This document shows positions 16,517 through 61,550 of a stretch of 64,000 nucleotides of DNA, piece by piece; the first letter of the stretch is position 1, and the number at the start of each line of letters is the position of its first letter. Under the pieces are notes generated by a model. The model made no database searches, was not told the DNA's origin, and saw only the letters and a list, made by a program, of their open reading frames with translations. The stretch is taken from IMG/VR virus record IMGVR_UViG_2915168811_000001; one strand, given 5' to 3'. Source of the DNA: a virus. The position numbers were made by a program, and so were the translations under genes.

Positions 16517-17605
16517 ATGAACACGTCACTGAGGCACACGGCAGGAACAGTCACTGCGAGCGAGAAGGTCGGAGGCCGTTTTCGGTCGCAGGAGCGCGAC
16601 ACCGCTTCGGCGCCCCCAATCCCTGAAAGCGACGGTCCGCTGGACCGCTACTTCGACTCAGTGGAGGAGAAGGTCGCAGCTATGTCCGCGGAACTGGAAA
16701 CGCTGGTGAAGAACCTGGAGACGGATGAGGGCTGGAATAACTACCTCTCCGCGATGGAGAAGTTCCACAACTACTCCTTCGCGAATCAGATGCTGATCGC
16801 GATGCAGAAGCCGGACGCAACCAGAGTTGCCGGCAAAGGCGCTTGGGCGGCTCTCGGCCGCACTTTGAAGCCGGTCGAGGAACGCGGCCGCGGCATCTCC
16901 ATTTTCCGTCCAAAGATGGGGCGCGCTGACGCGAAGGACCAGGACGGGAATCCGCGCCTGGGCCCGGACGGCAAGCCTCTCAAGGAAATGCGGGTCTTCG
17001 GGTACACGACGACGACGGTGTACGACATCTCCCAGACCGAGGGATCTGAGCTTCCTGTGGGGGTGCCGCACCTCACGGAGGAGCCGCCCGCCGGTTTCAT
17101 TGAGGACCTCGAAGCTGCGATCACGGAACGTGGCTACCCGGTTTCGTATGAAGACATTCCTGGGTCGAAACGCGGATACACGTCCATCAACCGCCTGACC
17201 GGCGAACGTCGCGTAGTCGTGTCGTCGAATCTGCCGGTGGGCGATCGCGCTCACGTGCTGGCGCATGAGCTTGGACACATCGCCGCTGGCCATATGGATG
17301 AAACGGACGACTATCACACGGGTGAGGGCGGACGTCGCGGCGTCATGGAGGTGGAGGCTGAGTCGATCTCTCACGTGCTGACCCGCATGAACGGAATGCA
17401 GACTCCCGGGGAGGCGACAGCGCCGTATGTGGCCGGCTGGGCGAACGTGCAGGGCGGCGACTCCACCGTGAAGGACGCCGGCGTCCGAGTTCAGAAGGCG
17501 ATCAAGGAGATCGTCATCGGGCGGGTGTGGGCGAACGTCGATGGGTCAGGCCCGAAAGCGGAATATGTGCGCAAGCCGCGCGCGAAGAAGGGATCGAAGA
17601 AATGA
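16517..17605 (+). CDS. ardC: ArdC-like ssDNA-binding / zincin antirestriction protein with N-terminal GG(Q/R)F peptide
   Basis: FHNYSFANQMLIAMQKPDATRVAG..W..LGR (ArdC-N-like), VYDISQTEG, HELGHI and EVEAES metallopeptidase motifs. Confidence 0.8.
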   Translation: MNTSLRHTAGTVTASEKVGGRFRSQERDTASAPPIPESDGPLDRYFDSVEEKVAAMSAELETLVKNLETDEGWNNYLSAMEKFHNYSFANQMLIAMQKPDATRVAGKGAWAALGRTLKPVEERGRGISIFRPKMGRADAKDQDGNPRLGPDGKPLKEMRVFGYTTTTVYDISQTEGSELPVGVPHLTEEPPAGFIEDLEAAITERGYPVSYEDIPGSKRGYTSINRLTGERRVVVSSNLPVGDRAHVLAHELGHIAAGHMDETDDYHTGEGGRRGVMEVEAESISHVLTRMNGMQTPGEATAPYVAGWANVQGGDSTVKDAGVRVQKAIKEIVIGRVWANVDGSGPKAEYVRKPRAKKGSKK

Positions 17606-17826
17606 CAGCATCAGAGCGATTCGAGTTCCCCGTCGAGATCATCGACGAAGCGGAAGGCGAGGTCCTGATCTTCGATGACGCTGAGATGTTCGCAATGTTC
17701 GAGGAGGCCGAGGCGAGCAGTGACCCCACGTTCGACTACGACCAGATCCGTCGGCGCGCGCTGACGTTGCGCGATCACCTGTCATCCATGGTTGGCGAGC
17801 TCGACATCCTGCTTGCTGCGGCATGA
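17602..17826 (+). CDS. Small acidic hypothetical protein
   Basis: ATGA overlaps on both sides. Confidence 0.6.
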   Translation: MTASERFEFPVEIIDEAEGEVLIFDDAEMFAMFEEAEASSDPTFDYDQIRRRALTLRDHLSSMVGELDILLAAA

Positions 17827-18437
17827 CCGATCTGGATGAGCTGCTCACTGCAGCTGACACTGAACCACCAGCCGTCACTGCGGGTAAAGCGGATATGCCG
17901 GCGCCGCGCCGCCGCCGGTGGGGCGTCGTTGTGCTGTCCCTCCTCGCTATCGCGGCCCTCGGGATTTGCGGGTGGGTCTTGGCGGTCATCCTGACGACCG
18001 GGTCTCCACCGAAAGCTGTTGAGGAGTTCGTCGGCACCGCATCCACTGAGGTGAGGAAGGCCGCGACAACGGTCACTGGCGGCACCCCGACCGTCACGCT
18101 GGGTGGTGTTGGTGGGCAGGCGCAGTTGGATGTGTGCGACGGGAAGTTCATCGAGATGGATGCGTACCGCGTTCAGGCGGACCTGCCCCCAACGTTCTCG
18201 GCGCACAACGGCTGCGGCGGAGACACCGTACTGATGGTTCCGGTGGGCGGGGTGATCGACGTAGTCGGTCGCGACGGCGTCACGCGCACGTTCACAGTGA
18301 CGGAGGAGCGTCGACTGAACAAGGACACGACGACGACCGCCGATGTTGCCGGGATGACAGGCGAACATATCCTGCAGACCTGCTTCTGGGACGACGCGAC
18401 AATGCGGTTCATCTCACTGGCACCGGCAGCAGTCTGA
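17823..18437 (+). CDS. Sortase-like protein
   Basis: N-terminal TM after RRRR; AHNGC His, LQTC catalytic Cys, downstream Arg. Confidence 0.7.
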   Translation: MTDLDELLTAADTEPPAVTAGKADMPAPRRRRWGVVVLSLLAIAALGICGWVLAVILTTGSPPKAVEEFVGTASTEVRKAATTVTGGTPTVTLGGVGGQAQLDVCDGKFIEMDAYRVQADLPPTFSAHNGCGGDTVLMVPVGGVIDVVGRDGVTRTFTVTEERRLNKDTTTTADVAGMTGEHILQTCFWDDATMRFISLAPAAV

Positions 18438-18475
18438 AAAATCTTTTGGGAAGTTCGTCACATTTTGGCGTGAGG

Positions 18476-18487
18476 CCGCGCATAACT
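18476..18487 (+). promoter_or_regulatory. Class A motif CCGCGCATAACT
   Basis: Upstream of 18544. Confidence 0.75.
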
Positions 18488-18543
18488 ATGGGTGCCACCG
18501 ATGGTGGTCCATTGGAGTACCCAAAACACGAAAGGATTTACCC

Positions 18544-19914
18544 ATGAACGACAAGAGCAGCGGCACCGACGGGGACATCACCCCCGAGGGCACCGCGACG
18601 CCTGACACGACTGCTGTTGCAGTTGCGGCTCCCGTGAAGAAGCGGGTCACGAAGCGCACCGCCCTGATTGCTGGTGGCGTTGCTGTCGCTCTGCTCGCCG
18701 GCGCTGCGGCGTTCGCTACCCCGGTCCTGATCCACAACAGCCAGGTGTCCAGCTACAACGCAATCGTGGATGAGTCGGCGACGGTCCGTGCCGATCAGAC
18801 CACAGCGTTCCAGCTCGCTGAGCTCGGCGAGCCGATCTACAACCGCGAGCTCGTCGAAGCTGCTGGCCTGGCCGGCAAGATCGCCGGTTTCGGTAAGACG
18901 GCTGAGCCGGTGCTGACGAAGAAGCAGGCTGAGGAGCTCGGCAAGGCCGGCGCGGTCGCTGTGAAGGCGATCGGTGAGGCTCCGAAGATTGACCCGAAGG
19001 CGGAGTTCGAGGTTCGCCTGGCTGAGCTGACCAAGGCTGATGAGGCTGCGGCGAAGAAGGCTTCGGATGCGAAGAAGGATGCGCCTGAGAAGGTCGTTCC
19101 GGCGTCGTTCCTGGGTCTGCCTGCCGCTGAGGTGGCCGCTGCTGTCGATCCGAAGTCGGATCTGAGTGAGTTCCCGCTGCCGGCCGCGAAGACGGTCGCT
19201 GACGAGAAGGTGAACGGCGACGTTGTCTCGGCTGCGGAGAAGGATCTCGCTGACGCGAAGGCGTGGCTGGCGAAGACCCAGAAGGCTGCTGACGGCTGGT
19301 CGGCGAAGTCCGACAAGCTCGTCGCCGCGCTGGACGCCACGGCACCGGCGGTTGACGCTGCTGCGAAGGGCGCTCCGGTGCAGGCGAAGGCTGTTGTGGC
19401 CGCTGCCCCGAAGGCTTCGGCTGAGGCACAGAAGAAGGTGACCACGACCGCTCAGGCGGCCGCTGACGCGGTGAAGGGCGGCGACTCGATCGTCACTGCC
19501 CGTGCGCTGGTCGCATATGTCGATGCCGCGAACGCTGCGGTGGCAGCACACAAGGCCCAGGTCGACAAGGAAGCTGCCGAAGCCGCTGCGGCTGCCGCGG
19601 CCGCTGCAGCGGCAGAAGCTGCCGCGAACGGTGCAAGCGGTTACACCGACCCGAACACCGGCGGCTGGGTGCCCAGCAACAACGGCGGCGGTGGCGGCGG
19701 TAACTGGGGCGGCGGCGGCACGACCGGCGGCGGTAACTGGGGCGGCGGTGGCGGCGGCGGCACGACCGGCGGCGGCGGCTCGACTGGCGGTGGCGGTGGC
19801 GGAGCGCCTGTTTGCCCCGGCCCTCCTGGCCCTGGGTGGTACCAAGGTGGTGGCTCTTCCGGTGGCTGCCCGACCTGGGTTGCTCCGGGTAGCGGCGGCG
19901 TCGACGACTGGTAA
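18544..19914 (+). CDS. Membrane-anchored Ala-rich coiled-coil surface protein with Gly-rich C-terminus
   Basis: KKRVTKR plus TM; long helical region; GGGGNWGGGG repeats and CPGPPGP...CPTW tail; RBS GAAAGGA. Confidence 0.75.
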   Translation: MNDKSSGTDGDITPEGTATPDTTAVAVAAPVKKRVTKRTALIAGGVAVALLAGAAAFATPVLIHNSQVSSYNAIVDESATVRADQTTAFQLAELGEPIYNRELVEAAGLAGKIAGFGKTAEPVLTKKQAEELGKAGAVAVKAIGEAPKIDPKAEFEVRLAELTKADEAAAKKASDAKKDAPEKVVPASFLGLPAAEVAAAVDPKSDLSEFPLPAAKTVADEKVNGDVVSAAEKDLADAKAWLAKTQKAADGWSAKSDKLVAALDATAPAVDAAAKGAPVQAKAVVAAAPKASAEAQKKVTTTAQAAADAVKGGDSIVTARALVAYVDAANAAVAAHKAQVDKEAAEAAAAAAAAAAAEAAANGASGYTDPNTGGWVPSNNGGGGGGNWGGGGTTGGGNWGGGGGGGTTGGGGSTGGGGGGAPVCPGPPGPGWYQGGGSSGGCPTWVAPGSGGVDDW

Positions 19915-19934
19915 ACCGCTGCTGTGAAGCTGTT

Positions 19935-19964
19935 GGGGTGTCACTTTAGGGTGGCACCCCTTTT
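19935..19964 (+). terminator. Intrinsic terminator
   Basis: GGGGTGTCAC/GTGGCACCCC plus TTTT. Confidence 0.8.
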
Positions 19965-20128
19965 GCGTGCGTGGACGCAGAAGTTGCGCGGCAGTCGATG
20001 CCATGGGAATGCTCCTCGGTAACGGGATGCTCGGCCTGTTCGGCCTCACCCCATTGATGCGCGGCAGCTGGCAGGGGTTTTGACGCTCTCAGCTGTTTTC
20101 CAGGTTCACGAGGGAATTCGGGCTGATC

Positions 20129-20142
20129 GGATCGCATGTGTG
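20129..20142 (+). promoter_or_regulatory. Class B motif GGATCGCATGTGTG
   Basis: Upstream of the adhesin gene. Confidence 0.7.
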
Positions 20143-20220
20143 TGGGAGAAGGCAATTTTTCTTGCCGGAAGTGATGCGCTGCCACAAGGGCAGGCAGACT
20201 GACCCGAAAGGCACCACACG

Positions 20221-23088: not shown

Positions 23089-23094
23089 CAGAAT

Positions 23095-23190
23095 CCGGGG
23101 CGGCGATGTTGTGCCGCCGCCCCGGTAATGGGTTCCCCCGGACCCGCACCACCAGAAAGCCCCGGTCTAGCCCTTGGGACCGGGGCTTTC
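23095..23190. terminator. Two tandem hairpins
   Basis: ccggggcggcg/cgccgccccgg and gaaagccccggtc/gaccggggctttc. Confidence 0.75.
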
Positions 23191-23888: not shown

Positions 23889-23957
23889 GAGCGAGCGGCA
23901 CGCCCGCGGCACCGGCTTGGCGGCTGGAGCGGCACACGGCGAGAGGCCCGCAAACGA

Positions 23958-26124: not shown

Positions 26125-27347
26125 TCGGACTCAGGAGCGGGGCGGTCCCACAGCGGGCCCTCTTCGAGCCGGGTGGCGAGCATCAGAGAAACCTCTCGGA
26201 GCATCGGCGCTGCCCCGAACACTGTCCCTTGCCGGCGGATCTCCGCGGCGAGCTTCACCCGGTTCGAAATCTTCCCTCGATGCGCGAAATCGTTCAGCAG
26301 ATTGATCGCACTCCGGTGTTTGTCGTGCTCCCCGCCTGAAATCAATTGATGCGGACCCTCGGCGCGGGCGCGCTCAAATGCGGCTGCCCAATGCTCGGGT
26401 TGCATGTTCTTGACCCCGATTCGCCGCACGTCAGCGGCAGGATCCTTCGATTCAATCCATGCGGAACGAATTTCTACGAATTCGCGCTGATCAACTGATT
26501 CATGGTTTTGCAGATGTCCGAGCAGCAGCTCCGGGTCGTAGCTTGAGACTCCAGTCCCCATTGAGTGCAGGGTCCCCGCTTCAGCTTCGCCGCCATTGGC
26601 TGAGATGCTCTCGCTGGTGACGCACTCGCTGTCCATCTTTGCAGCACGGACAGCCTCAAAAGCTGGCGCTGGACCGTTCAGTCCGAGCCTCACGTCGCCC
26701 TCGAAATGACCGGCCAGCCACTCTTCGATCTCCGGTCGGTATTCACGCGCTGTCGCCGCAGAGACGCCGCGCAGTGGTGCGGTCATGGTCTGCGTCACGG
26801 TGACCGAACCGTTTTCACGTCGAACGAACACCTGGTATTTCTCTGAAGCACCCTGGCTCTTCCACTCCTCGCTGTGGTTCGAGTTCACCATGAGGAGGTT
26901 TTCATCAGACCAGCGGGAGGTACGCGTGAAGGCCTCGGTACGCTCAGTCAGTACCGCAATGTCACCCGTGAGCATCGCTCTGGTTCGGCTGTCGAGAGAC
27001 CGCTGATCGATGTTCTCGAGCCGTTGCAGTTCCGCACAATCGAGCAGGTGCTCGGCGATCTCCGGGTAGGCGAGTTCCTGCTCACAGTCAGGGAGCTCGC
27101 TGAGCCGGGTGATCTCCTGCCGGTGCTCCCCCTGGACAGTTACCAGGTAGAGCCTTTCGGAGTCACCGGCACAGGTCATTCCGCTGATCTGATGCAGCGC
27201 CATGGACTCCAGCACCGCGGCTTCCTGGCCTGCAGGAGTGCGGTGCGGCACAGAACCGCTCTCGGAGCGGATCAGGGAAGCAAACTGACCGCCTACCTTC
27301 GAACCCGCTTTGACGGACCCGGCTCGTTCTCTCGCTATGGTGCTCAT
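26121..27347 (-). CDS. Hypothetical protein with N-terminal GGQF peptide
   Basis: MSTIARERAGSVKAGSKVGGQF; convergent stop shares CTAG with rep. Confidence 0.75.
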   Translation of the reverse strand: MSTIARERAGSVKAGSKVGGQFASLIRSESGSVPHRTPAGQEAAVLESMALHQISGMTCAGDSERLYLVTVQGEHRQEITRLSELPDCEQELAYPEIAEHLLDCAELQRLENIDQRSLDSRTRAMLTGDIAVLTERTEAFTRTSRWSDENLLMVNSNHSEEWKSQGASEKYQVFVRRENGSVTVTQTMTAPLRGVSAATAREYRPEIEEWLAGHFEGDVRLGLNGPAPAFEAVRAAKMDSECVTSESISANGGEAEAGTLHSMGTGVSSYDPELLLGHLQNHESVDQREFVEIRSAWIESKDPAADVRRIGVKNMQPEHWAAAFERARAEGPHQLISGGEHDKHRSAINLLNDFAHRGKISNRVKLAAEIRRQGTVFGAAPMLREVSLMLATRLEEGPLWDRPAPESD

Positions 27348-27354: not shown

Positions 27355-27365
27355 AGTATGTGCGG
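27355..27365 (-). promoter_or_regulatory. Class C motif CCGCACATACT
   Basis: Starts exactly 18 nt before ATG 27347. Confidence 0.75.
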
Positions 27366-29715: not shown

Positions 29716-32700
29716 TCATCCGAACAGGTCAAGCAGCGGAGTGCCGCCTCGCTTCACCGCAGGCTTCTTCGGCTCCCCGAAATCGACCGGTGCAGGGGGC
29801 ACGAACTGGGGTTCAGCAGGGGTTACGGGTTCAGCATCAGCAGCCGGTGTAACTGCGCCGAAGTCGACGGGGGCGGGAAGCGGCATAGGTCCTGGAGTGG
29901 CACCCACTTCGGAGTCGGCCCTCGGAGCTGTAAGCGCTACCTCCGGTGTCGGCTCGGGATCAAGAGGGAACACAAGGTCTGCCATCTCAATCACCGGCTC
30001 TGGCGCGCGTTCCTCCGCCGGCTGGTTCGGAGCAAGCGGGGTGACTTCCGCGATCGATCTCGCGACGGTGGCGGTCAGGCCGGCGTCCGCGAAATAATCG
30101 GCGAGGCTGATCCCCAGGTCGTCTTCAGCCCCCGCTTCCTCCGTGATCACCAGCAGCGGCCCCCAGCCCCCGGCAGGAGCGTGGCTGACGATAAGGTCGA
30201 CGATCGCTCCGAGCTCGGCTGCGAACGGGACAGGGATGGCCGGGAACCCCAGCGCATCCGCCAGGACAGCGTCATCCGACAGCAGCACGACTTCCCCGAT
30301 GGTCCGCACCGCGGCGAGAGCTTCGGTGTCGAGTTGGTCCACCCCGTATTCACAGTCCACCTGACCGGAGCCAATCCCCGTGATCACGCCAGTGGGGGCA
30401 ACCAGGCAGACCGCAGCGCCAGGTGCAATTTCGAGGCCCACGTCCGCCCCGCCGACCTGCACGCCTCCCAACCAGGAGGTGTCGTACGCTGAGCTTGCAG
30501 AATCACCGTCACCGAAAGCAGAAGCCACCGCTGCCGCGATTTCATCTTCCGCCGAACGCGCGGCCTCCGCTCCGACAGGCGAAGCGGCTTCATTCCCGTT
30601 TTCAGGCTCGGCGAGAGATTCAAAGTCGAGATCATCCCAGTCGAGATCAACCTCACCGAGATCGATGACCTCGGCAGGCGCCGCTATCGAATCAGGACCC
30701 TCAGCGATGATTTCGCCGAACACCGCCGCGACCTTCTCGTCCTTGCGCAGCTCCGCGTCCGTGAGTCGATCTGTCTCCGGATCACGGACCGCTGAAATGC
30801 GCGCCACCATCGATTCGAGATGGACGGTGCCAGCTTCCCGACCATCCCAGCCTTCCTGTGACTTTGCGGACGGGTTACCGTCGAACCAGGATTGGAAAAT
30901 CAGCGGAGCGCCTGCGGATCCCTCAAAGATCCCGCGGCCTTTCGGTACGGTCTCCCCCAGATCCGGCACCAACTCGATGTCCTTGAACGCTGACGCCTTC
31001 TGCCCGAACGAAGCCTTGCCGAGCAGAACCGTTGCAGCCTGGTTCTTGATGTTGCCCATCGCCGGAGATTCCTTCATATCGGCGGCGTTCATCGTCTGAC
31101 CAGCCACCAGCATCGAAACGCCAGCAGAGCGTGCCTCACGCATGATCTTGCCCACCTGCAGACCGATCTGGGACTTGTCATGGTTGATCGCCGAGATGCG
31201 GTCGAAATCCTGCATCTGCTCCTTCGACTCCTCACCTGTCAGCCGGGGAAGCAGCTCAGGCTTCAGCGTCGAAGTGAACTCGTCGATCATGACCAGCATG
31301 TGCGGCGGGCGCACTTCTTCGGGCAGCTCACTGACGCGAGGTGTCGAGTACTCATGGTTCAGCAGCTTGCGGCGCTCCACCTCCGCGTAAATGCGCGAAA
31401 GTGCTTCGGCAATCGTGCCGTAATCCGTCGCGACCGACTTCGCGTAGGGGAACAGGTACGTGTAGTCGGCAGCCAGCTTCGGCTTGTCGAAAATGTGCAG
31501 TTCGTACTGTTTGATCGCCGCTGCCGTCAGCACGGACTGCAGGAACGCGCTCTTACCGGAACCCGAGCTGCCCATCACCACGAGGTGGGGGTCCTCGAGC
31601 ACATCCAGCACTACCGGCTCCCCTTCGACGCCGTCCGCAAAAGCGAGACCGCGTGCCACTGGGATCTCGTCCCACTTGAACGGGGCGAGGTTCGGAAGCG
31701 GCGAATCCTCAGCAGACAAGATTTTCGCCTGACTGGCTTTGTCTCCTGGGCGAATTTCGAGGAACGAATTCCCTGTCGTCCCGCCGAGAGCGTCTCTTTT
31801 CTTGCGGAGGTCGCCGATCGACAGCCCGGGCGGGATCGAGAATGTCAGTTCGGACACAAGCTCGTTCTTTGGCAGCGTGCTGCGGTTGATCAGCATCGGC
31901 ACCTGCCCCGATGAGTTTTCCACCTTCGCTTCAGAGAATGCGAACTCCCAGTCAAGCGCGGTCGTTCGAAATCGTGCGGAGTCGTCCTTGAGCTCAGTGG
32001 CGCGCCGTGAGTTCGGGTTCGACCCCACTGCGATGCGGCAGCCCTCCGGAGCCTCGGAGATGCGAATCCAGTCGCACCCACCCATCGCCAGTCGAAGCTG
32101 TTCTCGGGCTTTCTTGACCGAAGCCAGGGTCACTCCCCCGTACAGGGCGAGTGTGAGCTCCCAGACATGGGAGCGTGACGTGCGCTTCGTGAGCTGCTCC
32201 ACCTTCACGACCTCAGGCCGATCGAGCTTCGCGGCCGCGAACGCCCGCGTGATCGCGCCGGTCAGGGCCCACCGAGACGCATCCTTGTCTTTGAGGTCAC
32301 GGGACTGACCAATAGCGGCGGGGTTCAGAGGGATTGACTGCTCCGACCAGAAGACGTGCAGTGAGTTCGGGTACCGCTGACGGTTGCCGTCGACGAAGTA
32401 GGACAGCGACGCCCAGCGAGCGTTCGGCAGGCCGGACTGCAGCGTCTCCAGGCTCACCTTGTCGAAGTACTTTGATGACGTGAGGCCTTGAGGTGCCATG
32501 AAGAGCCGGGAGTGGATGGTCTCACCCGTGGACAGCCGCGCTGTCTTGTTGTGCTCTGGGAAGTACGAAGGGTTCTGCAGCCCGATGCCGGTCATGTCCG
32601 TCCAGCGTTTCGCCCACATCGAGCGCTCCGCTTCCGCCTCGAGCTGTTCGATGATGCTGGGGTCAAGCAGGTCAGTCGTCGGTGCAGTGACCGCGCCGAC

Positions 32701-34059
32701 ATACAGTGCGTCACCAAACGGATACACGCCGGCTCCGCCGAGAGCGTTGCTGATCACGTTCGCGAGATAGTCCAGGCTTCCCGACACTTCCGCGCCGGCG
32801 ACTGTCAGTCCGTAGCTCACCTTCCATGCAGCGGTGGCACCTTCCGGATACTCCCCCGCTTCAGCGAAGAGCGGCTCGGGAGGCCCGAGCGGGATCATGG
32901 CGAAGTCAGCACCAGAGTCATTCACACATGCCTGGGTGACGTTCATTTCCAACCAGGCGGCGAGCAGCGTGCGATCCACGTTCGGATCTTCAATGTCAAC
33001 GGGGAAGTCGGACTTCCAGGTGATCACCTTGTATCGAAGCTTCGAGCGTGACAGCAGGATCGGCTGACCTTCGACGTCGGTGTCCGGTGCGGACATGAAC
33101 ACCGCCACCGTGTTTGGCGGCAGAGTCGGAGCGATGTCGTCGGGCGTCGGCGTTGCCGTCCAGTTGACCGCGGCGTTCGACATGGGTGCCTCGAATACGT
33201 CGATCCAGCACTCCTCCTGCTCACCGTGGCGTTCATGGGAGATGAGCTGAGGTCGTTCTTTCAGCTTGGGGACGGCGGCGAATCGTGCCTCCCACACGGC
33301 GCGTGACTCCACGGTGTTGCTCCACTTTGTGAACGTGGCGGCCGCGATAGCTTGATGGCCGATCCCCGCAGCGGTGAGCATAAGAACGCCGGCGCCGAAC
33401 ACGGGCGCGGGGTAGATGTAGTACCAGTCCGCGGCGTACAGCCACCACCAGGTGATCGCGCCGAGACCACCGGCGAACACGATCATCATCGCCGTGGAGG
33501 ACGTGATTTTCGCGTCCGTACCGACGCCTGCGAGGTAATCAGCGACCATCGTTGCGGGCTTCGGATCCCGCTCGGCGGCGAACCGTCGGCGAACTGCCGA
33601 CAGCTGTGTGGCCAGGAGGTACGCCGCCAGGGCGTTGAGAAAAGGTATCGCGGGCAGCGCTGCTTCTGCCCCGAAGCTTTGCAGCAAGGGGTAGGTGCCT
33701 TCGATCGGAAGCGTGAACGCCACCAGAGCGGCCCCGAGGCCTGCGACATGCTCGAATGACATTGGCCACGGAACGGCAGGGACCAGGATCTGCGTTCGCG
33801 CGGTCTGCCAGAACTGATGCTGGGCGACTTTCTTCCGCTCGCCAGGGTTCCCCACGGTTGGGCGTAGAGAGACCGGGTCTTTCGGTCCGGTCAGGGCGGG
33901 CGGCTGGGAGAAGAAACCAGCAATGGATACGCCGATCAGCAGAATGAAAGCGCCGGGGTACTGGAACCAGGCAGCCAGCGCGGCGGCCGCCACGGCGACA
34001 ACGAGTACGACCGGGGTGAGCGGCGCGCCTTGGTCTTGCTGCTGTTTCGAAACGGCCAT
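29716..34059 (-). CDS. Large membrane FtsK/SpoIIIE (TraB/TcpA-like) DNA translocase, about 1447 aa
   Basis: N-terminal TM helices; GSSGSGKS, MIDEFT, GVSMLVAGQ; acidic Pro/Ala tail; RBS AGGAG before ATG 34059. Confidence 0.8.
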   Translation of the reverse strand: MAVSKQQQDQGAPLTPVVLVVAVAAAALAAWFQYPGAFILLIGVSIAGFFSQPPALTGPKDPVSLRPTVGNPGERKKVAQHQFWQTARTQILVPAVPWPMSFEHVAGLGAALVAFTLPIEGTYPLLQSFGAEAALPAIPFLNALAAYLLATQLSAVRRRFAAERDPKPATMVADYLAGVGTDAKITSSTAMMIVFAGGLGAITWWWLYAADWYYIYPAPVFGAGVLMLTAAGIGHQAIAAATFTKWSNTVESRAVWEARFAAVPKLKERPQLISHERHGEQEECWIDVFEAPMSNAAVNWTATPTPDDIAPTLPPNTVAVFMSAPDTDVEGQPILLSRSKLRYKVITWKSDFPVDIEDPNVDRTLLAAWLEMNVTQACVNDSGADFAMIPLGPPEPLFAEAGEYPEGATAAWKVSYGLTVAGAEVSGSLDYLANVISNALGGAGVYPFGDALYVGAVTAPTTDLLDPSIIEQLEAEAERSMWAKRWTDMTGIGLQNPSYFPEHNKTARLSTGETIHSRLFMAPQGLTSSKYFDKVSLETLQSGLPNARWASLSYFVDGNRQRYPNSLHVFWSEQSIPLNPAAIGQSRDLKDKDASRWALTGAITRAFAAAKLDRPEVVKVEQLTKRTSRSHVWELTLALYGGVTLASVKKAREQLRLAMGGCDWIRISEAPEGCRIAVGSNPNSRRATELKDDSARFRTTALDWEFAFSEAKVENSSGQVPMLINRSTLPKNELVSELTFSIPPGLSIGDLRKKRDALGGTTGNSFLEIRPGDKASQAKILSAEDSPLPNLAPFKWDEIPVARGLAFADGVEGEPVVLDVLEDPHLVVMGSSGSGKSAFLQSVLTAAAIKQYELHIFDKPKLAADYTYLFPYAKSVATDYGTIAEALSRIYAEVERRKLLNHEYSTPRVSELPEEVRPPHMLVMIDEFTSTLKPELLPRLTGEESKEQMQDFDRISAINHDKSQIGLQVGKIMREARSAGVSMLVAGQTMNAADMKESPAMGNIKNQAATVLLGKASFGQKASAFKDIELVPDLGETVPKGRGIFEGSAGAPLIFQSWFDGNPSAKSQEGWDGREAGTVHLESMVARISAVRDPETDRLTDAELRKDEKVAAVFGEIIAEGPDSIAAPAEVIDLGEVDLDWDDLDFESLAEPENGNEAASPVGAEAARSAEDEIAAAVASAFGDGDSASSAYDTSWLGGVQVGGADVGLEIAPGAAVCLVAPTGVITGIGSGQVDCEYGVDQLDTEALAAVRTIGEVVLLSDDAVLADALGFPAIPVPFAAELGAIVDLIVSHAPAGGWGPLLVITEEAGAEDDLGISLADYFADAGLTATVARSIAEVTPLAPNQPAEERAPEPVIEMADLVFPLDPEPTPEVALTAPRADSEVGATPGPMPLPAPVDFGAVTPAADAEPVTPAEPQFVPPAPVDFGEPKKPAVKRGGTPLLDLFG

Positions 34060-34090
34060 GCCGAGGTTCTCCTGAACGTGCGATTGCGTA

Positions 34091-34675
34091 CTAGTTGGCG
34101 AGGGCGGCGAGGGCGACCATGATGTCCGGCCGAGCGCCCTGCGCCTTGGTGTGTCGTTTGAGCCAGTGGCTGAGCATCGCTCCGCGCACCACTCGCGTGT
34201 CCCCTGCCGGCCGGTAAGCGGCGAAGGAGACCGGAGTTGTGTTCCAGACGGCAAGTAGCGGGCGTTCGACGATGAAGTCGCCGATTCCCTGCTTGTGCAG
34301 GAACCTCTGAATTGCGCCGGCGGCGGTTGGCAGTGTCTTCTTGTCTGCCTCGGGGAACATCGTCATTCCGCGCCGGGTCACTCCCCCGACTGTCCAGAAC
34401 ACTCCCCCGGCCCACGCTTTTGCGTCGATCAACAGAATTCGGTTGCCGTGCATGACGAGGTGGTCGATGTTCGCTTTGAAACCAGGGATCGGGATTCGTA
34501 GGTCGTTGATCACCGACGGACCGCGCTTCGTGTTCTCGAGCAGCGCCTCCCCGGTCCGGACCTCGGCCCCCTGCCCGACTTTGCGCACTGCGTCGTTTGC
34601 GACCCAGTTGGCGCCGGTGTCGAGTGACCGCCCTGCTCGCCCAAGGTATTGACCTCGGACCTGCGGGGCGCTCAC
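34091..34675 (-). CDS. NERD-domain nuclease-like protein
   Basis: INDLRI...NIDHLVMHGNRILLIDAKAW. Confidence 0.75.
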   Translation of the reverse strand: MSAPQVRGQYLGRAGRSLDTGANWVANDAVRKVGQGAEVRTGEALLENTKRGPSVINDLRIPIPGFKANIDHLVMHGNRILLIDAKAWAGGVFWTVGGVTRRGMTMFPEADKKTLPTAAGAIQRFLHKQGIGDFIVERPLLAVWNTTPVSFAAYRPAGDTRVVRGAMLSHWLKRHTKAQGARPDIMVALAALAN

Positions 34676-54046: not shown

Positions 54047-54063
54047 GTTCTTGCTCCTTGTGT

Positions 54064-55370: not shown

Positions 55371-57307
55371 CGGGCGCCCCGACCGAAAAGACGCAGTCCA
55401 CGCTTCTTTGGTTCAATCCGTTCGGGAGCGAACCGTGCGTCACCAGTGACCTGATGTAGGGCTTCATTCAGCACCGGTCGGACGGTCTCTGACGAAGTCG
55501 GGATGAAGCCGCCAAAGGACTGGTCTTTGAAGAACTCGTCCTCCAGAGCAGTCCCCAGAAAGCGTGCTGACCCCGTCAGAAACTGGGTTATGAACTGTCC
55601 TTCGTCTGTGGAGAAGGCAGGCCATCGGTTGCCGATCGCAATGAATCGGGCGTTACTCACGCCGCGCGCCATCAGCGAGGCGATGATCGTTTTAAGGTCA
55701 GGCAGTGACGGCGGGGATGAATCAAACAGGCCGAACGCCCATGCGCCGGATCGCAGCTGCGGGATCATCACCTCCAGCCACAGGTCAGTGAGATGCGCTT
55801 CTGCGATCTGCGTGTCGATGATCACGAGGTCGTATTCCCTCGTCAGCTCACCGATGACTTCCGCGTACAGCGACGCTGGTGTGTGCTCGGGGGCGGCAAG
55901 ATGATCCGGGGGCCCGAAGACCGTGTCGAAGTGCACCGGTCCGTGAGCACGGCGCACAGCGCTGAGCGTCTCTGCGCTGACGACTGCGGCGCGCCAGCCG
56001 CCTCGGACGGCGTCATAGATGCTGGGCAGCTGGGCGTTCGTGGCGCGCGTGTACCGACGGATGTTCGCTTGGCCGCGGTTCGCATCCACGACACAGGCGC
56101 GCAGTCCGGCAAGCCCTGCCATCTCGGCCAGGGTCAGCGCGAACGACGTCTTACCGACACCGCCCTTTGCCGCCCAGCTGATGATGACCTGAGGGTTCAG
56201 CTGTGACTGGACGTGCTGGATAACCTGCCGGTTGCTCCGATCGAAGAACTCGGAGGGGTCCATGACAGGCGCCGCTAGCGGGGCAGTCGCGGCAGGCTCC
56301 TGGTGTGAGGGCTGGGCAGTTTGCTGCATCCACGGAGCGGACGGCTGCGCGACAGGCTGCTGCGGGGCGACGTAGGCAGGCGCGGGAGCAGGAACTGGAG
56401 CAGGGGCAGGCGCGGGAGCAGGCTCAGTCCATTGCTGGATGGGCTGGGCATCGGCTGCCGGTACGGGCTCCGGTTGAGCGGGCACATAGCTCGGGATCGG
56501 CTCAGGAGTGAGCTTCGGCCTGGGGCGTGCGAACTCAGGCAAGGGTGACGGGGTGAGCACGTCCGCGTCCGCGGCTGCCGCTTGCGCCGGGTTCACCTGG
56601 GTGTTCAGGGTTGGCGTTGCCTCCCCGGGCGCTACCGGCTGAGTCGGGGGCTTAGTCGCTGCGTTCATGCGGGTCAGCCAGGCGGGAGTGGAGGGCCCAG
56701 CCCCGGGGGACACTGCGGGAGGAGCTTCCGATGGGACGGCGGCTGCTCGAGTGACCTCGGGGCTGGGAGTGTGTGGGGCGTCCGCAGGGACGGGCTCGCT
56801 GACGGGAGCCCGATGGGCGTCCGAATACGCCGTTGGTGCCGGACTGGGCGCGTCGAAATCGACTGGCGGGGGAAGCTGGGTGTCCGCGGCAGTCGGAATC
56901 GCGTCCTGCATGATCGGAGAGCTGTCGGCTGCAGGCACCCCGCCGAATCCGATCGAAGTGTCAGCGAGATCTGACAGCGCGACGGGGACGCCGAGATCCG
57001 TGAGAAGCTCTGCGACTGTGATCGGCAGGTCCAGCGCGAATGGGTTGCCGGTAAGGGTTCCGCCCGGTCCCGGAATCACCCGAACGTCGGTGCGCTGCGC
57101 CTGAGAGTGCACCCAGGGGCTGATCCGCCCAAGGCCTTCCAGGTCAGCTACCACTACGGGGAACACCCCGTGCTGCTCCTGCGCGCCCTTGATTGCGTGT
57201 GCATGGGCTGGGTATTGATCCCCGCCGAATACGTGAAGGCCCAGGCCGGTCAGAAGCTCGATGAGCCCTGCCGGTCCGATGACGCCAATAAAGTTGCTCT
57301 GTCCCAT
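55367..57307 (-). CDS. MinD/CpaE-like ATPase with long Pro/Ala linker
   Basis: AKGGVGKTS, VDAN, DLVIIDT. Confidence 0.75.
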   Translation of the reverse strand: MGQSNFIGVIGPAGLIELLTGLGLHVFGGDQYPAHAHAIKGAQEQHGVFPVVVADLEGLGRISPWVHSQAQRTDVRVIPGPGGTLTGNPFALDLPITVAELLTDLGVPVALSDLADTSIGFGGVPAADSSPIMQDAIPTAADTQLPPPVDFDAPSPAPTAYSDAHRAPVSEPVPADAPHTPSPEVTRAAAVPSEAPPAVSPGAGPSTPAWLTRMNAATKPPTQPVAPGEATPTLNTQVNPAQAAAADADVLTPSPLPEFARPRPKLTPEPIPSYVPAQPEPVPAADAQPIQQWTEPAPAPAPAPVPAPAPAYVAPQQPVAQPSAPWMQQTAQPSHQEPAATAPLAAPVMDPSEFFDRSNRQVIQHVQSQLNPQVIISWAAKGGVGKTSFALTLAEMAGLAGLRACVVDANRGQANIRRYTRATNAQLPSIYDAVRGGWRAAVVSAETLSAVRRAHGPVHFDTVFGPPDHLAAPEHTPASLYAEVIGELTREYDLVIIDTQIAEAHLTDLWLEVMIPQLRSGAWAFGLFDSSPPSLPDLKTIIASLMARGVSNARFIAIGNRWPAFSTDEGQFITQFLTGSARFLGTALEDEFFKDQSFGGFIPTSSETVRPVLNEALHQVTGDARFAPERIEPKKRGLRLFGRGAR

Positions 57308-57394
57308 GCCCTAGAAGCACCGGGAGCCCAGAGACAGCGAAGGGGCGCTTCCACGTGATTACGCGAAAACGCCCCTGGGGTACTCAGCTAACTG

Positions 57395-58198
57395 TCAGCT
57401 TGCGACGAGGTACTGCACCGGCACCTCTGCAGTGACCGGCGGGACCCCCACCATTACTGGCGAGCTCGGCACTACGACTGGCTGCCGCGTCAGCGGGGGA
57501 ACGGTGAATAGTCCGTCCTCAGAGACAGTGAGCGCGGGCAGTGGTTCGGAATCGAACGGGGCTTCTTCCGCTACCTCTTCAGGGTCGATCTCCGCTTCAC
57601 GGCTCAGGTGCTCCGCCCAAGCGGCATCCAAGTCAGGTTCGTAGGCATCGGCAGCGCGCTCATAAGTGGGTTCGGGCACGAAAGTGGAGACTTCAGAGAT
57701 GGCTTCTTCCCGTGCGGCCGCCACTTCACGCTGGAACGAAAGCCGCACAACCTCCTCGGCTGACACCAGTGCTGCGAGGGGAGCCGAGATCGCGATCAAG
57801 ACACCAAAAAATGCTTCGTAGCGTGTGAAATCCCATGACCAGTGCGATCCCGCATGTGCACCGTTAATCAGGACGGAAATGATCGTGAAGGTCCACAGCC
57901 AGCGGCGGGCGATTCCAGAGTTCTCCAGCTCGCCCCGCCACCGGTAGATAGCGAACGACACCGTGTAAGTGAGGATCGCGCCGTCGATGAAGATCGGGGC
58001 GAGAAACTGCACCCATTCAGCGCCCTCTGGAGGCCCTGCCCATTTCGCGGCCTCGGCGATGGTGGCGTACGAGAACACGTACGACGCGACCATGATGGTC
58101 ACGACCAGGGCGATCGCAAACCATCCAACGGCTTGGCGGTCAGGCGAGATGCGGGCAGAGCTCTTCTTTTTCTCAGTCACATTCATGATCAGATCCAT
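57395..58198 (-). CDS. DUF2637-like membrane protein (Spd-type)
   Basis: Four TMs; SYATI...APIFIDGAIL...SVLINGAH...IAISAP. Confidence 0.7.
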   Translation of the reverse strand: MDLIMNVTEKKKSSARISPDRQAVGWFAIALVVTIMVASYVFSYATIAEAAKWAGPPEGAEWVQFLAPIFIDGAILTYTVSFAIYRWRGELENSGIARRWLWTFTIISVLINGAHAGSHWSWDFTRYEAFFGVLIAISAPLAALVSAEEVVRLSFQREVAAAREEAISEVSTFVPEPTYERAADAYEPDLDAAWAEHLSREAEIDPEEVAEEAPFDSEPLPALTVSEDGLFTVPPLTRQPVVVPSSPVMVGVPPVTAEVPVQYLVAS

Positions 58199-58201
58199 TC
58201 G

Positions 58202-59701
58202 CTAGTAAAGGTCGACGTCTTCGTCGATGTCGTTAATCCAGGAGAGTGCGCCGGTGTCCAGCGCATCTTTCGCCCGCGTCACGGTGACGTAGGAGATGCG
58301 TGCCTCTTCGGCCTGGAGCTCAAGCCGATCGGTGGTGTCGTTCCGCTTCGGCTCCGGGAAGTCCTTCGACACGCGAACGGAGCCCCACTCGAGGCCCTTG
58401 GCGATGTGCGCCGTGGAGATGACGAGATCAGCAGAAGCCATGTCGCAACGCTCGAGCGCATCGACCACCTTCTCCGCGGTGAACCGGTCGACGACCTTCA
58501 CGAGCGGGGCGAAATCCTTGCCCTCGTCGGTCTCGGAGATCTCGACCACCTGATCCCAGGTTTCAAATGCCTGGAAGTCGGGGTGGCTGGTCCGACCCTT
58601 CACCTGCAGGTCCACAGCAGCCTTCGCGAGCCGCTGCAGTTCCTGAGCCTTTCGCTCGCCGGCAACACCCACGGTTCGGTTCTTCTCCAGCCCCTTCAGG
58701 ACCTCGAAGATCGCTCCGCCGTTCGTGCGGCAGATCACTGCGTCAGGCGCTGTCACACGACCCACGCGAGACTGCTTCGCAGGGTTGCCGCGGATCGTCA
58801 GGTCAGCACCAAGCAGATCGAGCCACTTCTGAGCTTCCTCAGCGACCTCTTCGCCGAACCGGAAAGACTGACTGAGCTGCGCGACGTACGCACCGGGAAG
58901 GTTGCTCATTGCATCCATCGTTCCCGTGCGCCAGCCGTAAATGGCCTGGCTGCGGTCCCCGACAAACACCCGCTGGGCGTCCTGCTTCAGCAGCACGTCC
59001 ACCATCAGCCCGTCGGCGTCCTGGGCTTCGTCGAGGCATACGAAATCGACGTTGAGCTTCGGGTTGGATAGCTGCCACATCTTCAGGTAGGAGTCGTGCT
59101 TGAACGGCAGCGTCCCGAAGGGATCGCGCTGATCGGCCCACACAGTTTCCGCGAAGTCGAGGATGGTGCGAGCCAGGTCTTCTTTCGCTGCCCGATTGCC
59201 TACGACGAGTGCTTTCGGGAGAGCGACGTGCTGCAGTCCGAGCACCGCATCGGCGGTGCGCTGGAAGCGGGTCACTGTCTCCTGCGCGAGCTGCGTCAGA
59301 GACTCCCGCCGGATCTTCCGAGTGGTCGACTGTGCGTCGGGGCCAAAAACGTAGTCGGTTTCGATGCCGACCCGCTTCGCAATGACGCCCCACGGAGTGA
59401 ACCGAGGCGTGTTGTTCAGGCGCTCACGGAAAGGGGCCGCCATGGACCGCCAGGCGAGAGAGTGCACTGTGAACGGGTTGGTCTGGGTTCCGCTGAAACG
59501 GGCCTGCGCTTCCTGCGCGACGCTCTTATTGAACGCGAGATACATGCCTCGGCGGTGCGGCGCGTACCGGGCCAGTAGCTCCAAGGTCGTCGTCTTTCCG
59601 GAACCCGCGGCCGCCTCAATGACGAGGTCCTTCCCGGTTCGATAGCACAGCAGGGCGTGCTCCTGCTCAGCTGTGGGAGCGTGCTGGACGGCGGTGGACA
59701 T
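58202..59701 (-). CDS. UvrD/REP-family 3'-5' helicase
   Basis: AAAGSGKTT, LDEAQD, VGDRSQAIYGWR, LSQSFRFG, HIAKGLEW, YVTVTRAK. Confidence 0.9.
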   Translation of the reverse strand: MSTAVQHAPTAEQEHALLCYRTGKDLVIEAAAGSGKTTTLELLARYAPHRRGMYLAFNKSVAQEAQARFSGTQTNPFTVHSLAWRSMAAPFRERLNNTPRFTPWGVIAKRVGIETDYVFGPDAQSTTRKIRRESLTQLAQETVTRFQRTADAVLGLQHVALPKALVVGNRAAKEDLARTILDFAETVWADQRDPFGTLPFKHDSYLKMWQLSNPKLNVDFVCLDEAQDADGLMVDVLLKQDAQRVFVGDRSQAIYGWRTGTMDAMSNLPGAYVAQLSQSFRFGEEVAEEAQKWLDLLGADLTIRGNPAKQSRVGRVTAPDAVICRTNGGAIFEVLKGLEKNRTVGVAGERKAQELQRLAKAAVDLQVKGRTSHPDFQAFETWDQVVEISETDEGKDFAPLVKVVDRFTAEKVVDALERCDMASADLVISTAHIAKGLEWGSVRVSKDFPEPKRNDTTDRLELQAEEARISYVTVTRAKDALDTGALSWINDIDEDVDLY

Positions 59702-59748
59702 GAGTCTCCTTGGGGTCTGCGAACACATAGGTTCGGGGGTCTGCCCCT

Positions 59749-59760
59749 AGTGATGCGCGG
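59749..59760 (-). promoter_or_regulatory. Class A motif CCGCGCATCACT
   Basis: Upstream of the UvrD-like gene. Confidence 0.8.
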
Positions 59761-59781
59761 TGCTCTGCGAGAGAGAGCCGA

Positions 59782-60771
59782 CTACGCGGCGACGCGGTCG
59801 AGCTCAGCTGCGGCCAGCTGAAGGCCTGACGTGATCAGAACTTCACGGGACTTCGATGGAGTAGTAATCCGATGCGACGCGTTCTTGTAGTCAAAATCGA
59901 GATCCAGTACCCGGTAGTCGCGGGCGGCAAGCCAGGCGAGCATCCGGGTGTGGTCCTGCCCTTTGTGGGTGAGGACGTTCGACATCGCGAACGGGATCCC
60001 GCGGTCTGCGAGCCCGTCGAGCCAGTCAAGAAGCTCGTCATCGATTGACGCGTTCCAGCTCGCCTTGTTGTACGGCGCCGCACCGAGCAGATACGGTGGG
60101 TCTGCGTAGCAGAACACGTCACCGTCAGGCAGCTGCATTTCACGGAAGTCGATGTTCGTGATCGAGTGGTCAATCGTGGCCAGGCGGGCGACGGTGTCCG
60201 CGAGATTCTTCCGCACGTTCGCATTGAAGTCGCGCTTGCCCGCGGGGTTACGCCAATGCCCGTCACGCGCCCTCAGCCTGATTTGGTTATTGAACCCAAA
60301 CAGCACCAAGGCGAACGTTGCTGCGTCCCGGCGGCGTCCGGCAAACACTCCAGAGTTGTAGTCGTCACGCAGTCGTTCATATGGCCCGCGGTTGTGGCTG
60401 ACCAGACCGGAAGAGGATGTGCCGCCGAACGCCTCGTAACCGTGGGTGCGTGAATCGGAGAAGCCATACCCCTCGATCAGCGCCTCGATTTCCGCTTCGA
60501 TCTGACCTGGGTGTGAGCTTGAGAAATATCGGGCGAGGCCCGCGGCTTCGGCCGAAGCGTCGTTGAACCAGACATGCGCCGCGTCGACGTTCATGCCGAC
60601 GTTCATGCCCCCGCCGAACACGTCCACAAACGTCGACCCGGTCAGATCCCCGAACTCAGGGATGATCGTGTGCAGCAGCCGAATCTTGTTCCCGACGTAG
60701 TTCGTCGGGGCTTTCGTGAAACGGCTGATGGGGGCTTTCGGACGGCGCCGAACTGGTGCTGTGCTGTGCAT
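59782..60771 (-). CDS. Orphan N6-adenine DNA methyltransferase (D12/Dam family)
   Basis: NYVGNK, DVFGGG, GFNNQIR..G....P.GKRDFN, YADPPY, FAMSN, EVLIT. Confidence 0.9.
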   Translation of the reverse strand: MHSTAPVRRRPKAPISRFTKAPTNYVGNKIRLLHTIIPEFGDLTGSTFVDVFGGGMNVGMNVDAAHVWFNDASAEAAGLARYFSSSHPGQIEAEIEALIEGYGFSDSRTHGYEAFGGTSSSGLVSHNRGPYERLRDDYNSGVFAGRRRDAATFALVLFGFNNQIRLRARDGHWRNPAGKRDFNANVRKNLADTVARLATIDHSITNIDFREMQLPDGDVFCYADPPYLLGAAPYNKASWNASIDDELLDWLDGLADRGIPFAMSNVLTHKGQDHTRMLAWLAARDYRVLDLDFDYKNASHRITTPSKSREVLITSGLQLAAAELDRVAA

Positions 60772-60780
60772 GAGGACTTA

Positions 60781-60789
60781 TATGTGCGG
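60781..60789 (-). promoter_or_regulatory. Class C motif CCGCACATA
   Basis: Starts exactly 18 nt before ATG 60771. Confidence 0.75.
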
Positions 60790-60818
60790 CGAGCCCGAAA
60801 TTCGGGACCACCGGCCTC

Positions 60819-60827
60819 CCGCACATA
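60819..60827 (+). promoter_or_regulatory. Class C motif CCGCACATA
   Basis: Starts exactly 18 nt before ATG 60837. Confidence 0.75.
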
Positions 60828-60836
60828 TGGGTAACC

Positions 60837-61550
60837 ATGAGTAGCGCAAGAAACCAGCCCCGAATTTCAGCAGGAAATCGCGTCGCCGGACGCCCCGCCG
60901 GCGGGCAGTTCGCCGCCACAGTCAGACTGTCCGGGGTAGCTCCGCAGCTCATTCCCTCCACAGGGCCGGCAGAGCAGCCGGCAGAGCAGCCCGTGTCACG
61001 GTTTGCGCCACCAGCTCACGTCGCTGCATATGAGCCACCCGTCATTTGGGATGCAGAGTTTGCTGTCACTCCGTTTGACCTCCTCCCGGAGCTCCCGGCC
61101 TCCGGCGGCAGTGAGCGGGAGTGGTCGGACTACGTCTCGCATCGAAAACGGATCGGAGACGCCGTGCCCATCTCGAGGTATCAGGTGCGAATGCAGCATG
61201 AAGCGAACGCCGCCGCGCTGTTCAATGAGCTGGAGGACATGCGCGGGATGGTGCCCGTCGATGACCCTGCCTGGCTGCAGAAACGAGATGCCGCTCTGAT
61301 CCAGTCAGCACTTGCCGCGGACCCTGACGCTACGGAGTTGATCATCACCCGGGACATGGCAAGCAACATCACTGTCGAGCTGGATGTGCCGCAGGACCTC
61401 TACCTGCGCCCCAACCTCCAGCAAGTCGCACTCCCGATGCGGGTTAAGCGCGCGATTGGAGTCGCCACAACTGCGGGGCTGGAGTGGAAGTACGGCCCGG
61501 TGGGGGACCGTGGAGCGACACAGGTTGTGCGGATCCCGCTGCGCAGCTGA
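60837..61550 (+). CDS. Hypothetical protein with N-terminal GGQF peptide
   Basis: MSSARNQPRISAGNRVAGRPAGGQF. Confidence 0.75.
   Translation: MSSARNQPRISAGNRVAGRPAGGQFAATVRLSGVAPQLIPSTGPAEQPAEQPVSRFAPPAHVAAYEPPVIWDAEFAVTPFDLLPELPASGGSEREWSDYVSHRKRIGDAVPISRYQVRMQHEANAAALFNELEDMRGMVPVDDPAWLQKRDAALIQSALAADPDATELIITRDMASNITVELDVPQDLYLRPNLQQVALPMRVKRAIGVATTAGLEWKYGPVGDRGATQVVRIPLRS

Follow-up and report, generated by a model that had tools for sequence, protein, structure and literature searches.

Three tagged genes in the window

The DNA analyzed here is a stretch of 64,000 nucleotides, virus record IMGVR_UViG_2915168811_000001 of IMG/VR, and we refer to the whole of it as the window. It contains three genes whose products begin with a common short peptide, which we call the tag, followed in each by a different protein body. 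The strict form of the tag, R..AG.{7}[VA]GG[QR]F.{4}R, is found at three places only in a six-frame scan of the window, within the open reading frames (ORFs) 16517+, 27347− and 60837+. In all three it starts 5–9 residues past Met1 with identical spacing, and all three frames have a third-position GC content of the coding type. The strict pattern gave no match in 300 mononucleotide shuffles of the window, for which the core pattern gave a mean of 0.01. Thus the three peptides are present just as the initial annotation described them, and its statement that the bodies are unrelated holds, since BLASTP detects no mutual similarity between the three when the tag is removed. The positions of the genes, tags and associated features are collected in Table 1.

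Table 1. Features of the window discussed in the text (aa, amino acids).
Feature	Position	Strand	Basis and remarks
FtsK/SpoIIIE-type ATPase, 569 aa, two genes upstream of the tagged ArdC gene	14128..15837	+	Pfam
CCGCACATA before the ATG of the ArdC-like gene; probable −10 region of a leaderless promoter	16499..16507	+	9-nt spacing
ArdC-like protein, 362 aa: N-terminal tag, linker, ArdC-N single-stranded-DNA-binding domain, HExxH metallopeptidase domain	16517..17605	+	ORF, Pfam, homologues, AlphaFold2 model
Tag copy 1, RHTAGTVTASEKVGGRFRSQER, diverged GGRF variant	16532..16597	+	Pattern; predicted local distance difference test (pLDDT) <50 in the AlphaFold2 model, no secondary structure
Tagged orphan protein ORF2, 408 aa	26121..27347	−	ORF
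Tag copy 2, RERAGSVKAGSKVGGQFASLIR	27267..27332	−	Pattern; independent profile E 1.3e-3 within the window
CCGCACATA before the ATG of the 27347 gene	27357..27365	−	9-nt spacing
FtsK-domain protein, 1512 aa, conserved backbone gene	29716..34254	−	Pfam
Dam-type methylase gene, untagged, with CCGCACATA at 60781-60789 (gene start 60771)	59782..60789	−	Pfam MethyltransfD12
CCGCACATA ahead of the 60837 gene, 9-nt spacing to its ATG; pairs divergently with the copy at 60781-60789	60819..60827	+
Tagged orphan protein ORF3, 237 aa	60837..61550	+	ORF
Tag copy 3, RISAGNRVAGRPAGGQFAATVR	60861..60926	+	Pattern; top window match of the independent profile, E 2.9e-5

The product of the first gene is ArdC-like, having the ArdC-N domain and the C-terminal zincin domain of this anti-restriction family. 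Pfam matches Peptidase_M78 at residues 205-264 with 24.8 bits (cut-off 22) and ArdcN with 19.4 bits, under its cut-off of 22.6. There are 271 homologues, most of them with ArdcN and M78, and PF08401 is found in most of the 120 that were listed. In an alignment of 28 sequences H250, E251 and H254 of the zincin HExxH motif are invariant. An AlphaFold2 model based on the same alignment has a mean pLDDT of 83, and its top match in the PDB is the ArdC protein of R388 (6I89; E 9e-8 over 259 columns), with which it shares ∼16% identity in the structural alignment. Residues 1-38 of the model have pLDDT <50 and lack secondary structure or contacts, whereas the body has values >90 from about residue 45. 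The protein therefore has the same two-domain fold as ArdC of the IncW plasmids R388 and pSa, but in the model this fold begins at around residue 45, behind a 38-residue disordered tag.

The three copies of the tag do not score equally. A profile made from 131 foreign tags ranks ORF3 first (E 3e-5) and ORF2 second (E 1e-3) among 1,236 six-frame segments of the window, while the ArdC copy, with GGRF, is too diverged to score. The orthologue P0003, which is 60% identical to the ArdC-like protein, has GGQF at the same place, and the GGQF of the orthologues is our sole ground for counting the ArdC copy as a tag. No other tag-like motif in the window is credible (searched as the expressions HPR..GxF and RDxxGRF). 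A weak resemblance, Q-A-P-G-V-R-A-G-Q-F-A-A-S (E 0.26), lies at 56266-56508 (+) in a short frame antisense to a ParA-like gene, and is most likely due to chance.

ORF2 and ORF3 have no match in Pfam or NCBIfam and no homologue in a collection of 5.8 billion proteins, and feature and structure searches of the protein Atlas returned only sub-threshold leads, none above noise. The initial annotation put both forward as candidate anti-defence effectors. As both are orphans with no recognizable fold, that label is a guess made by association.

Distribution of the tag, its cargo and its occurrence in polyvalent proteins

How general is the tag? A profile built from 32 tags and compared with a library of 1.84 billion proteins detects 2,606 representative proteins (clusters) at E ≤ 1e-3. 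Among the 150 best matches, 129 have a single tag, which lies at the extreme N-terminus within residues 1-40. Cargo was tabulated for 119 N-terminally tagged representatives, which fall into 90 BLASTP families. The profile search and tabulation, both proposed in the initial annotation, bear out its idea of a portable module on unrelated cargo, for the tag is found on thousands of proteins that are unrelated to one another, in elements that have transfer genes.

The cargo is for the most part unfamiliar. Just six of the 119 proteins have any Pfam match (LRV, LRV_2, DUF7007, GmrSD_N, an Arr-ms ADP-ribosyltransferase and DUF6745). Their bodies are acidic, with a median isoelectric point of 4.6 compared with 5.7 for the genes of the window. 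One of the 119 has a hydrophobic 19-residue segment, which is marginal and lies outside the tag, and because of this we take the tagged proteins to be soluble and not substrates of Sec. The consensus of the tag itself, with a single arginine and no h-region, lacks the features of a Sec or Tat signal. Fic, KTSC, HD, PASTA-annotated and helicase-associated-domain proteins are among the named cargo of the Arthrobacter plasmid NZ_CP104273.1, and a DSP-type phosphatase is found elsewhere. Judged by their sequences, the named cargo are effector-type enzymes: ArdC, Fic, Arr-type ADP-ribosyltransferase and DSP phosphatase.

Many copies may be gathered in one element. A Cellulosimicrobium genome has 58, all on two element contigs and 13 of them consecutive around its ArdC gene. 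NZ_CP104273.1 has 39, a metagenomic contig of 15.6 kb has 15, Cellulomonas hominis has 12 in 21 kb, and one further contig has a single copy. Of the 120 ArdC homologues listed, some 45 begin with a peptide of this class; others have a shorter form, E-x-x-HPR-x(n)-G-x-F-x-DK, or a cysteine-rich module, and distant homologues lack any extension. The HPR and GGQF classes are bridged by hybrid tags, for example FDS-x-AHPR-x3-GV-x-TGGQF. The Cys/His-rich forms (within P0007-P0067) are of the type C-x-TGPTC-x2-H or CPA...C...H, so that ArdC homologues exchange their N-terminal extension among at least three modules.

The tag has no match in 400 genomes sampled across the class, where 18 candidates were scored per genome, nor by short-peptide tblastn in 50,697 phage records. 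It is not covered by Pfam-A or NCBIfam, the profile matches no PDB sequence even at E 10, and our literature searches found no published description of it. A term search of a leading-region paper found no mention of such a tag.

The tag is not confined to stand-alone proteins. About 20 of the top profile matches are 800-3,100 aa long and contain the motif 3-9 times internally; their Pfam domains include ART-PolyVal, ADP-ribosyl exotoxin, GNAT, topoisomerase I, 2′-5′ RNA ligase, MuF and LPD1. They are the polyvalent proteins described by Iyer, Burroughs, Anand, de Souza and Aravind (2017, PMC5512222), with 2-15 effector domains per polypeptide and with ArdC-N and a zincin peptidase as signature domains. 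In that paper they and ArdC are described as delivered with the DNA, ArdC being cited as transferred during conjugation, and processing by metallopeptidases is proposed; the passages of it that were read hold no description of the motif. The initial annotation had pointed to a delivery system in actinobacterial plasmids. Giant plasmids and integrated elements of actinobacteria do carry the tag, but this scope was too narrow, given that phage polyvalent proteins have the same motif between their domains.

Every polyvalent domain, the first included, has a copy of the motif ahead of it, with a Gly/Ser linker in between; the same motif is found ahead of ART-PolyVal, MuF, LPD1 and GNAT domains alike. 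Thus the unit of motif, linker and domain is the same in the stand-alone actinobacterial proteins and in the polyvalent proteins. The repertoire of ArdC-N and peptidase domains is likewise common to these and to the window ArdC-like protein. The actinobacterial elements differ in devoting a separate gene to each unit, with up to 58 in an element, in place of a polypeptide of 2-15 domains. In keeping with this, the tagged proteins of the window are only 237-408 aa in length, the ArdC-like protein having a two-domain body and the other two no recognized domain. The repeats within one polyvalent protein are nearly identical, while they differ between phages.

Two of the polyvalent genes could be placed in context (contigs L063 and L064). 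Each is part of a phage head module, flanked by portal/MuF genes on one side and prohead protease/capsid genes on the other. A neighboring polyprotein that also bears the motif has a Peptidase_S78_2 domain at its end, and the gene of another is adjacent to an S78-capsid gene. Homology to MuF led to a MuF protein of Gordonia phage Jabberwocky in which the motif is absent; the motif is therefore not a general feature of MuF proteins. In the phage protein P0122 (L063 1502-6580) every repeat begins K-M-AANQPRVPAGS with an in-frame methionine. It resembles a fusion of seven stand-alone tagged genes, or a protein in which internal initiation could yield single modules as well.

Conservation of the tag and the upstream promoter

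The general consensus of the tag is [QR]-x-R-[VQ]-P-[AK]-G-V-P-T-G-G-Q-F-A-x3-[RH]-x-E-x2-V-x-L, and conservation spans about 25-30 residues. The tags of the window have a private 5-residue insertion that is common to Leucobacter-type relatives. GGQ is followed by F in all 131 independent tags, and only by F, Y or W in the Cellulosimicrobium copies; a conserved E lies 7 residues after this aromatic. A likeness of GG[QE] to the GGQ loop of release factors or to the C-terminus of Pup is superficial by inspection, as the spacing, context and position differ.

The invariant aromatic and the conserved glutamate would be in accord with a processing site or conditional degron, at which a protease would cut the polyproteins or remove an N-terminal propeptide. 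Candidate proteases are a zincin/M78 peptidase of the element such as the C-domain of ArdC, the S78 prohead protease of the phage, or a protease of the host, and the cut might activate the cargo or expose a destabilizing N-terminal F, Y or W after GGQ. The location of the motif between domains of proteins that PMC5512222 proposes as metallopeptidase substrates is consistent with this, as are the Peptidase_S78_2 domain ending one polyprotein, the S78-capsid gene adjoining another, and the presence of ArdC, itself a peptidase, among the tagged proteins. Yet copies are also found at residues 3-30 of the polyvalent proteins and 3-10 residues from Met1 of the stand-alone proteins, where a cut would separate nothing, and the conserved span exceeds that of typical cleavage sites. 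We consider such processing unlikely, although it is still a serious rival.

Is the tag part of a folded structure? An alignment of tags folded alone is predicted to be coil, with a predicted template modeling score of 0.20, and in the ArdC-like model it makes no contacts with the body. The prediction is thus of a short linear motif at the N-terminus, disordered and not packed against the ArdC body. That the tag is instead the first strand or helix of one shared folded domain, too diverged to be recognized, is the possibility that the initial annotation had itself named as fatal to its proposal, and only the common 22 residues speak for it. The model shows a disordered tag and a body folded from around residue 45, the bodies are unrelated, and there are ArdC homologues with no tag or with other N-terminal modules. 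A shared domain is accordingly the least probable explanation of those considered here.

The tags of an element have a dialect of their own. When tag similarity within an element was compared with that between elements, the values were 0.68 within and 0.38-0.57 between for Cellulosimicrobium, 0.55 and 0.31-0.52 for the Arthrobacter plasmid, 0.60 and 0.34-0.57 for contig L062, and 0.42 and 0.31-0.38 for the window. Such dialects fit co-evolution with a partner encoded by the element, and speak against a universally conserved target in the host. They bear directly on a further explanation, that the tag acts after delivery, tethering effectors to a common hub such as the incoming DNA or its coat protein, RNA polymerase, the ribosome or a defense hub, and so concentrating them where they act. 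Disordered linear motifs are of the kind that bind folded hubs, the arrangement of tag, linker and cargo would suit a tether, and the motif is found in plasmids or integrative and conjugative elements and in phages of different phyla, which share host machinery rather than delivery machines. Set against this are the dialects and the private insertion, which oppose a universal host target, the lack of likeness by inspection to known clamp-, SSB- or RNA polymerase-binding motifs, and the lack of a match to PDB sequences. We regard docking on a hub as improbable, to about the same degree as processing, and likewise as a serious rival.

At the DNA level, an exact copy of CCGCACATA lies 9 nt ahead of the ATG in all three tagged genes of the window. 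The untagged Dam methylase gene has it too, so promoter motif and tag are separable. In the Cellulosimicrobium element CCGCACAT is followed by ATG 8-10 nt later ∼106 times in ∼335 kb (contigs C9 and C3), with no conserved −35 region at these sites. It precedes ∼45 of the 58 tagged genes there and also ∼60 untagged genes, while tagged genes internal to operons have a GTG start and a Shine-Dalgarno sequence and lack the motif. The upstream motif is an element-wide promoter type, and is not specific to the tag. The claim of the initial annotation that the three genes are co-regulated is therefore sound to the extent that all three have the motif, but its distribution is wider than the tagged genes and does not include all of them. 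The promoter is probably leaderless and composed of a −10 region alone, with transcription presumed to start at the ATG. This suggests that most genes of the Cellulosimicrobium element are expressed as leaderless mRNAs from a private promoter of this kind. The copies of CCGCACATA for the Dam methylase (−) and for the 60837 gene (+) form an inverted repeat ∼29 nt apart at 60781-60827, and could be back-to-back promoters or a single palindromic operator.

The usual location of CCGCACAT at a fixed distance before the tag, in genes with no Shine-Dalgarno sequence, raises the question of whether the peptide is a by-product without function, generated by duplication of a promoter with its 5′-coding sequence or by the requirements of a leaderless initiation region. 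However, in 59 Cellulosimicrobium copies three to four synonymous codons are in use at each of the invariant positions R, P, A, G and V. Because synonymous codons vary where the residues do not, conservation is at the level of protein and is not due to recent homogenization of the DNA. Moreover, tags are present on the GTG-started genes within operons and inside polyvalent proteins, and the promoter precedes the ∼60 untagged genes and the Dam methylase of the window. An origin as a by-product is thus very improbable, and we consider both this and the shared-domain explanation to be essentially excluded.

Host elements and a possible role in delivery

The backbone of the window recurs in two related elements, one on two contigs of Cellulosimicrobium sp. 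Marseille-Q4280 and the other the complete, circular plasmid NZ_CP104273.1 (400.6 kb) of Arthrobacter sp. zg-Y1110. Orthologues of the 569-aa FtsK protein adjoin tagged genes in both (42% identity in the Cellulosimicrobium element and 38% in the Arthrobacter plasmid), and this ATPase may be put forward, by inference, as a candidate receptor or coupling ATPase for the tag. An acidic protein of 190 aa with no Pfam match is encoded between it and the tagged ArdC gene (15917-16489, +). Its orthologue in the Cellulosimicrobium element is encoded at the equivalent place, and the protein is a candidate accessory factor of the ATPase. The 1512-aa FtsK protein has orthologues in both relatives, where a gene for a VirD4-type coupling protein lies directly upstream; this is not so in the window. 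The remaining backbone of the window includes an AEP-wHTH protein, YdjM, DnaE, an NAD-dependent ligase, UvrD, SNF2, a ParA-like protein and the Dam methylase. A thioester (TED) domain in a 955-aa protein and NikA are seen only as sub-threshold Pfam matches. A megablast comparison of 24 kb of the window with plasmids and phages gave no match.

The Cellulosimicrobium element has a VirB4-like AAA_10 ATPase and a VirD4-type coupling protein. No HK97 capsid (PF05065) was matched across the whole of this genome, and of the 56 Pfam families matched by 81 backbone ORFs (C9 68-215 kb), the 25 listed include none of structural proteins. The same 81 ORFs include housekeeping-type genes (BacA, alanine dehydrogenase, CorA and an aldo-keto reductase), for which reason the element may be integrated in the chromosome, or have been assembled beside it. 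The Arthrobacter plasmid has a VirD4-type protein, both types of FtsK, YdjM, ParA, two sets of type IV pilus genes, sigma factors and Lsr2. In Jonesiaceae, Cellulomonas hominis and Pseudactinotalea the tagged genes lie on contigs of chromosome size, and in Jonesiaceae they adjoin VirB4-like and M23 hydrolase genes. On the basis of the common backbone and the conjugation-type genes of its relatives, the window is placed by gene content in a family of giant plasmids and integrated elements. VirB4-like, VirD4-type and FtsK-type ATPases and M23 hydrolases are found in tag-bearing elements as co-occurrence only.

The Arthrobacter plasmid has its own secE (125242-125514), secY (159473-160780), secG (160825-161070) and clpX (166575-167840), and a plasmid-borne SecYEG is unusual. 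SecYEG and ClpX were considered as receptors of the tag and rejected; they are not part of the core, being absent from the window and from the Cellulosimicrobium element. The plasmid further encodes two sigma-70 factors together with Lsr2, thioredoxin reductase, dUTPase, DHFR and UmuD/Y-polymerase.

What might the tag do? We suggest, tentatively and at a little below an even chance, that it is a disordered N-terminal address or docking motif for the co-delivery of effectors with the DNA of the element. This is favored by its portability, N-terminal position, disorder, selection at the protein level and dialects, and by its occurrence in transfer-type elements and in polyvalent proteins of phage head modules. 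Tag, flexible linker and variable cargo domain would together make up a ‘travelling’ effector module of mobile DNA, present as one gene per module in the giant plasmids and integrated elements of actinobacteria, and strung together into the head-module polyvalent proteins of some phages. The tag would dock on a partner encoded by the element; in plasmids this would most plausibly be a transfer or coupling ATPase of the FtsK or VirD4 type, and in phages a component of the head or of the ejection apparatus. Cargo that has docked would thereby be marked to enter a new host together with the DNA, and there ArdC, Fic, ADP-ribosyltransferase, phosphatase and many acidic proteins might help establishment. 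The docking partner, the delivery and the anti-defense role of the two orphan cargos are what we infer from this arrangement.

Comparable logic is found in a number of known systems. Substrates of type IV secretion systems are marked by the C-terminal Arg-rich tails of VirE2 and VirF, the BID domains of Bartonella Fic effectors or the C-terminal signals of Dot/Icm. There too one short signal is carried by many unrelated effectors, Fic proteins included, and recognition by a coupling ATPase is the logic proposed here. The tag differs in being N-terminal (129 of 150) and unrelated in sequence, and in occurring in Gram-positive Actinomycetota. In phage T4 a capsid-targeting sequence, and propeptides cleaved by the prohead protease (also of the phiKZ type), provide an N-terminal peptide on proteins that are packed and injected. 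The motif-bearing phage genes similarly adjoin portal, MuF, prohead protease and capsid genes, but capsid together with prohead protease is found only in phage contigs L063 and L064; the actinobacterial elements have no capsid detected in the Cellulosimicrobium scans, and the motif is internal as well as N-terminal. The trafficking domains of polymorphic toxins (LXG, WXG and MuF) also combine a constant N-terminus with hypervariable C-terminal cargo, in arrays of genes. LXG and MuF are folded and of at least 100 residues, the helical N-domain of LXG/WXG being ∼100-200 residues, whereas the tag is ∼25-30 residues of predicted coil and so lacks the character of an LXG/WXG type VII substrate.

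A number of observations weigh against an address for delivery. The known signals of type IV secretion systems are C-terminal, and not N-terminal. No gene for VirD4 or VirB4 was found within the 64-kb window, and MOB-suite types NZ_CP104273.1 as non-mobilizable. Plasmids and phages have no obvious receptor in common, so one address must serve two unrelated machines. Conjugation has, to our knowledge, no precedent for an element that delivers 58 proteins. The similarity of tags within an element could also owe something to duplicated 5′ ends. A more specific version of the address, and in our view a doubtful one, is that Actinomycetota possess a conjugation apparatus which translocates effectors and for which the tag is the N-terminal export signal. 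Dozens of tagged proteins would then be injected with the DNA, and phages would use the same signal for their capsid-borne polyvalent effectors. If true, the tag would be a cross-machine ‘passport’ that defines a repertoire, not seen before, of thousands of anti-defense and host-takeover proteins.

Shared address tags on delivered effectors are already known, as C-terminal signals in type IV secretion, as the capsid-targeting sequence of T4 and as the N-domains of LXG and MuF proteins. What appears to be undescribed is an N-terminal tag in conjugation-type elements of actinobacteria, its abundance of up to 58 copies per element, and the fact that the same motif stands between the domains of polyvalent proteins. 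Even as a processing site or a hub-docking motif it is strongly selected, widespread and absent from Pfam, NCBIfam and PDB sequences, and deserves a family model. If it marks delivered proteins, a 30-residue profile would provide a sequence-only handle on the effectors of mobile elements, comprising more than 2,600 clusters that are almost entirely ‘dark’, and protein transfer in Gram-positive and actinobacterial conjugation would become directly testable. The effectors of plasmids and the polyvalent proteins of phages would then be the same units, unfused in the one and fused in the other, with a common grammar.

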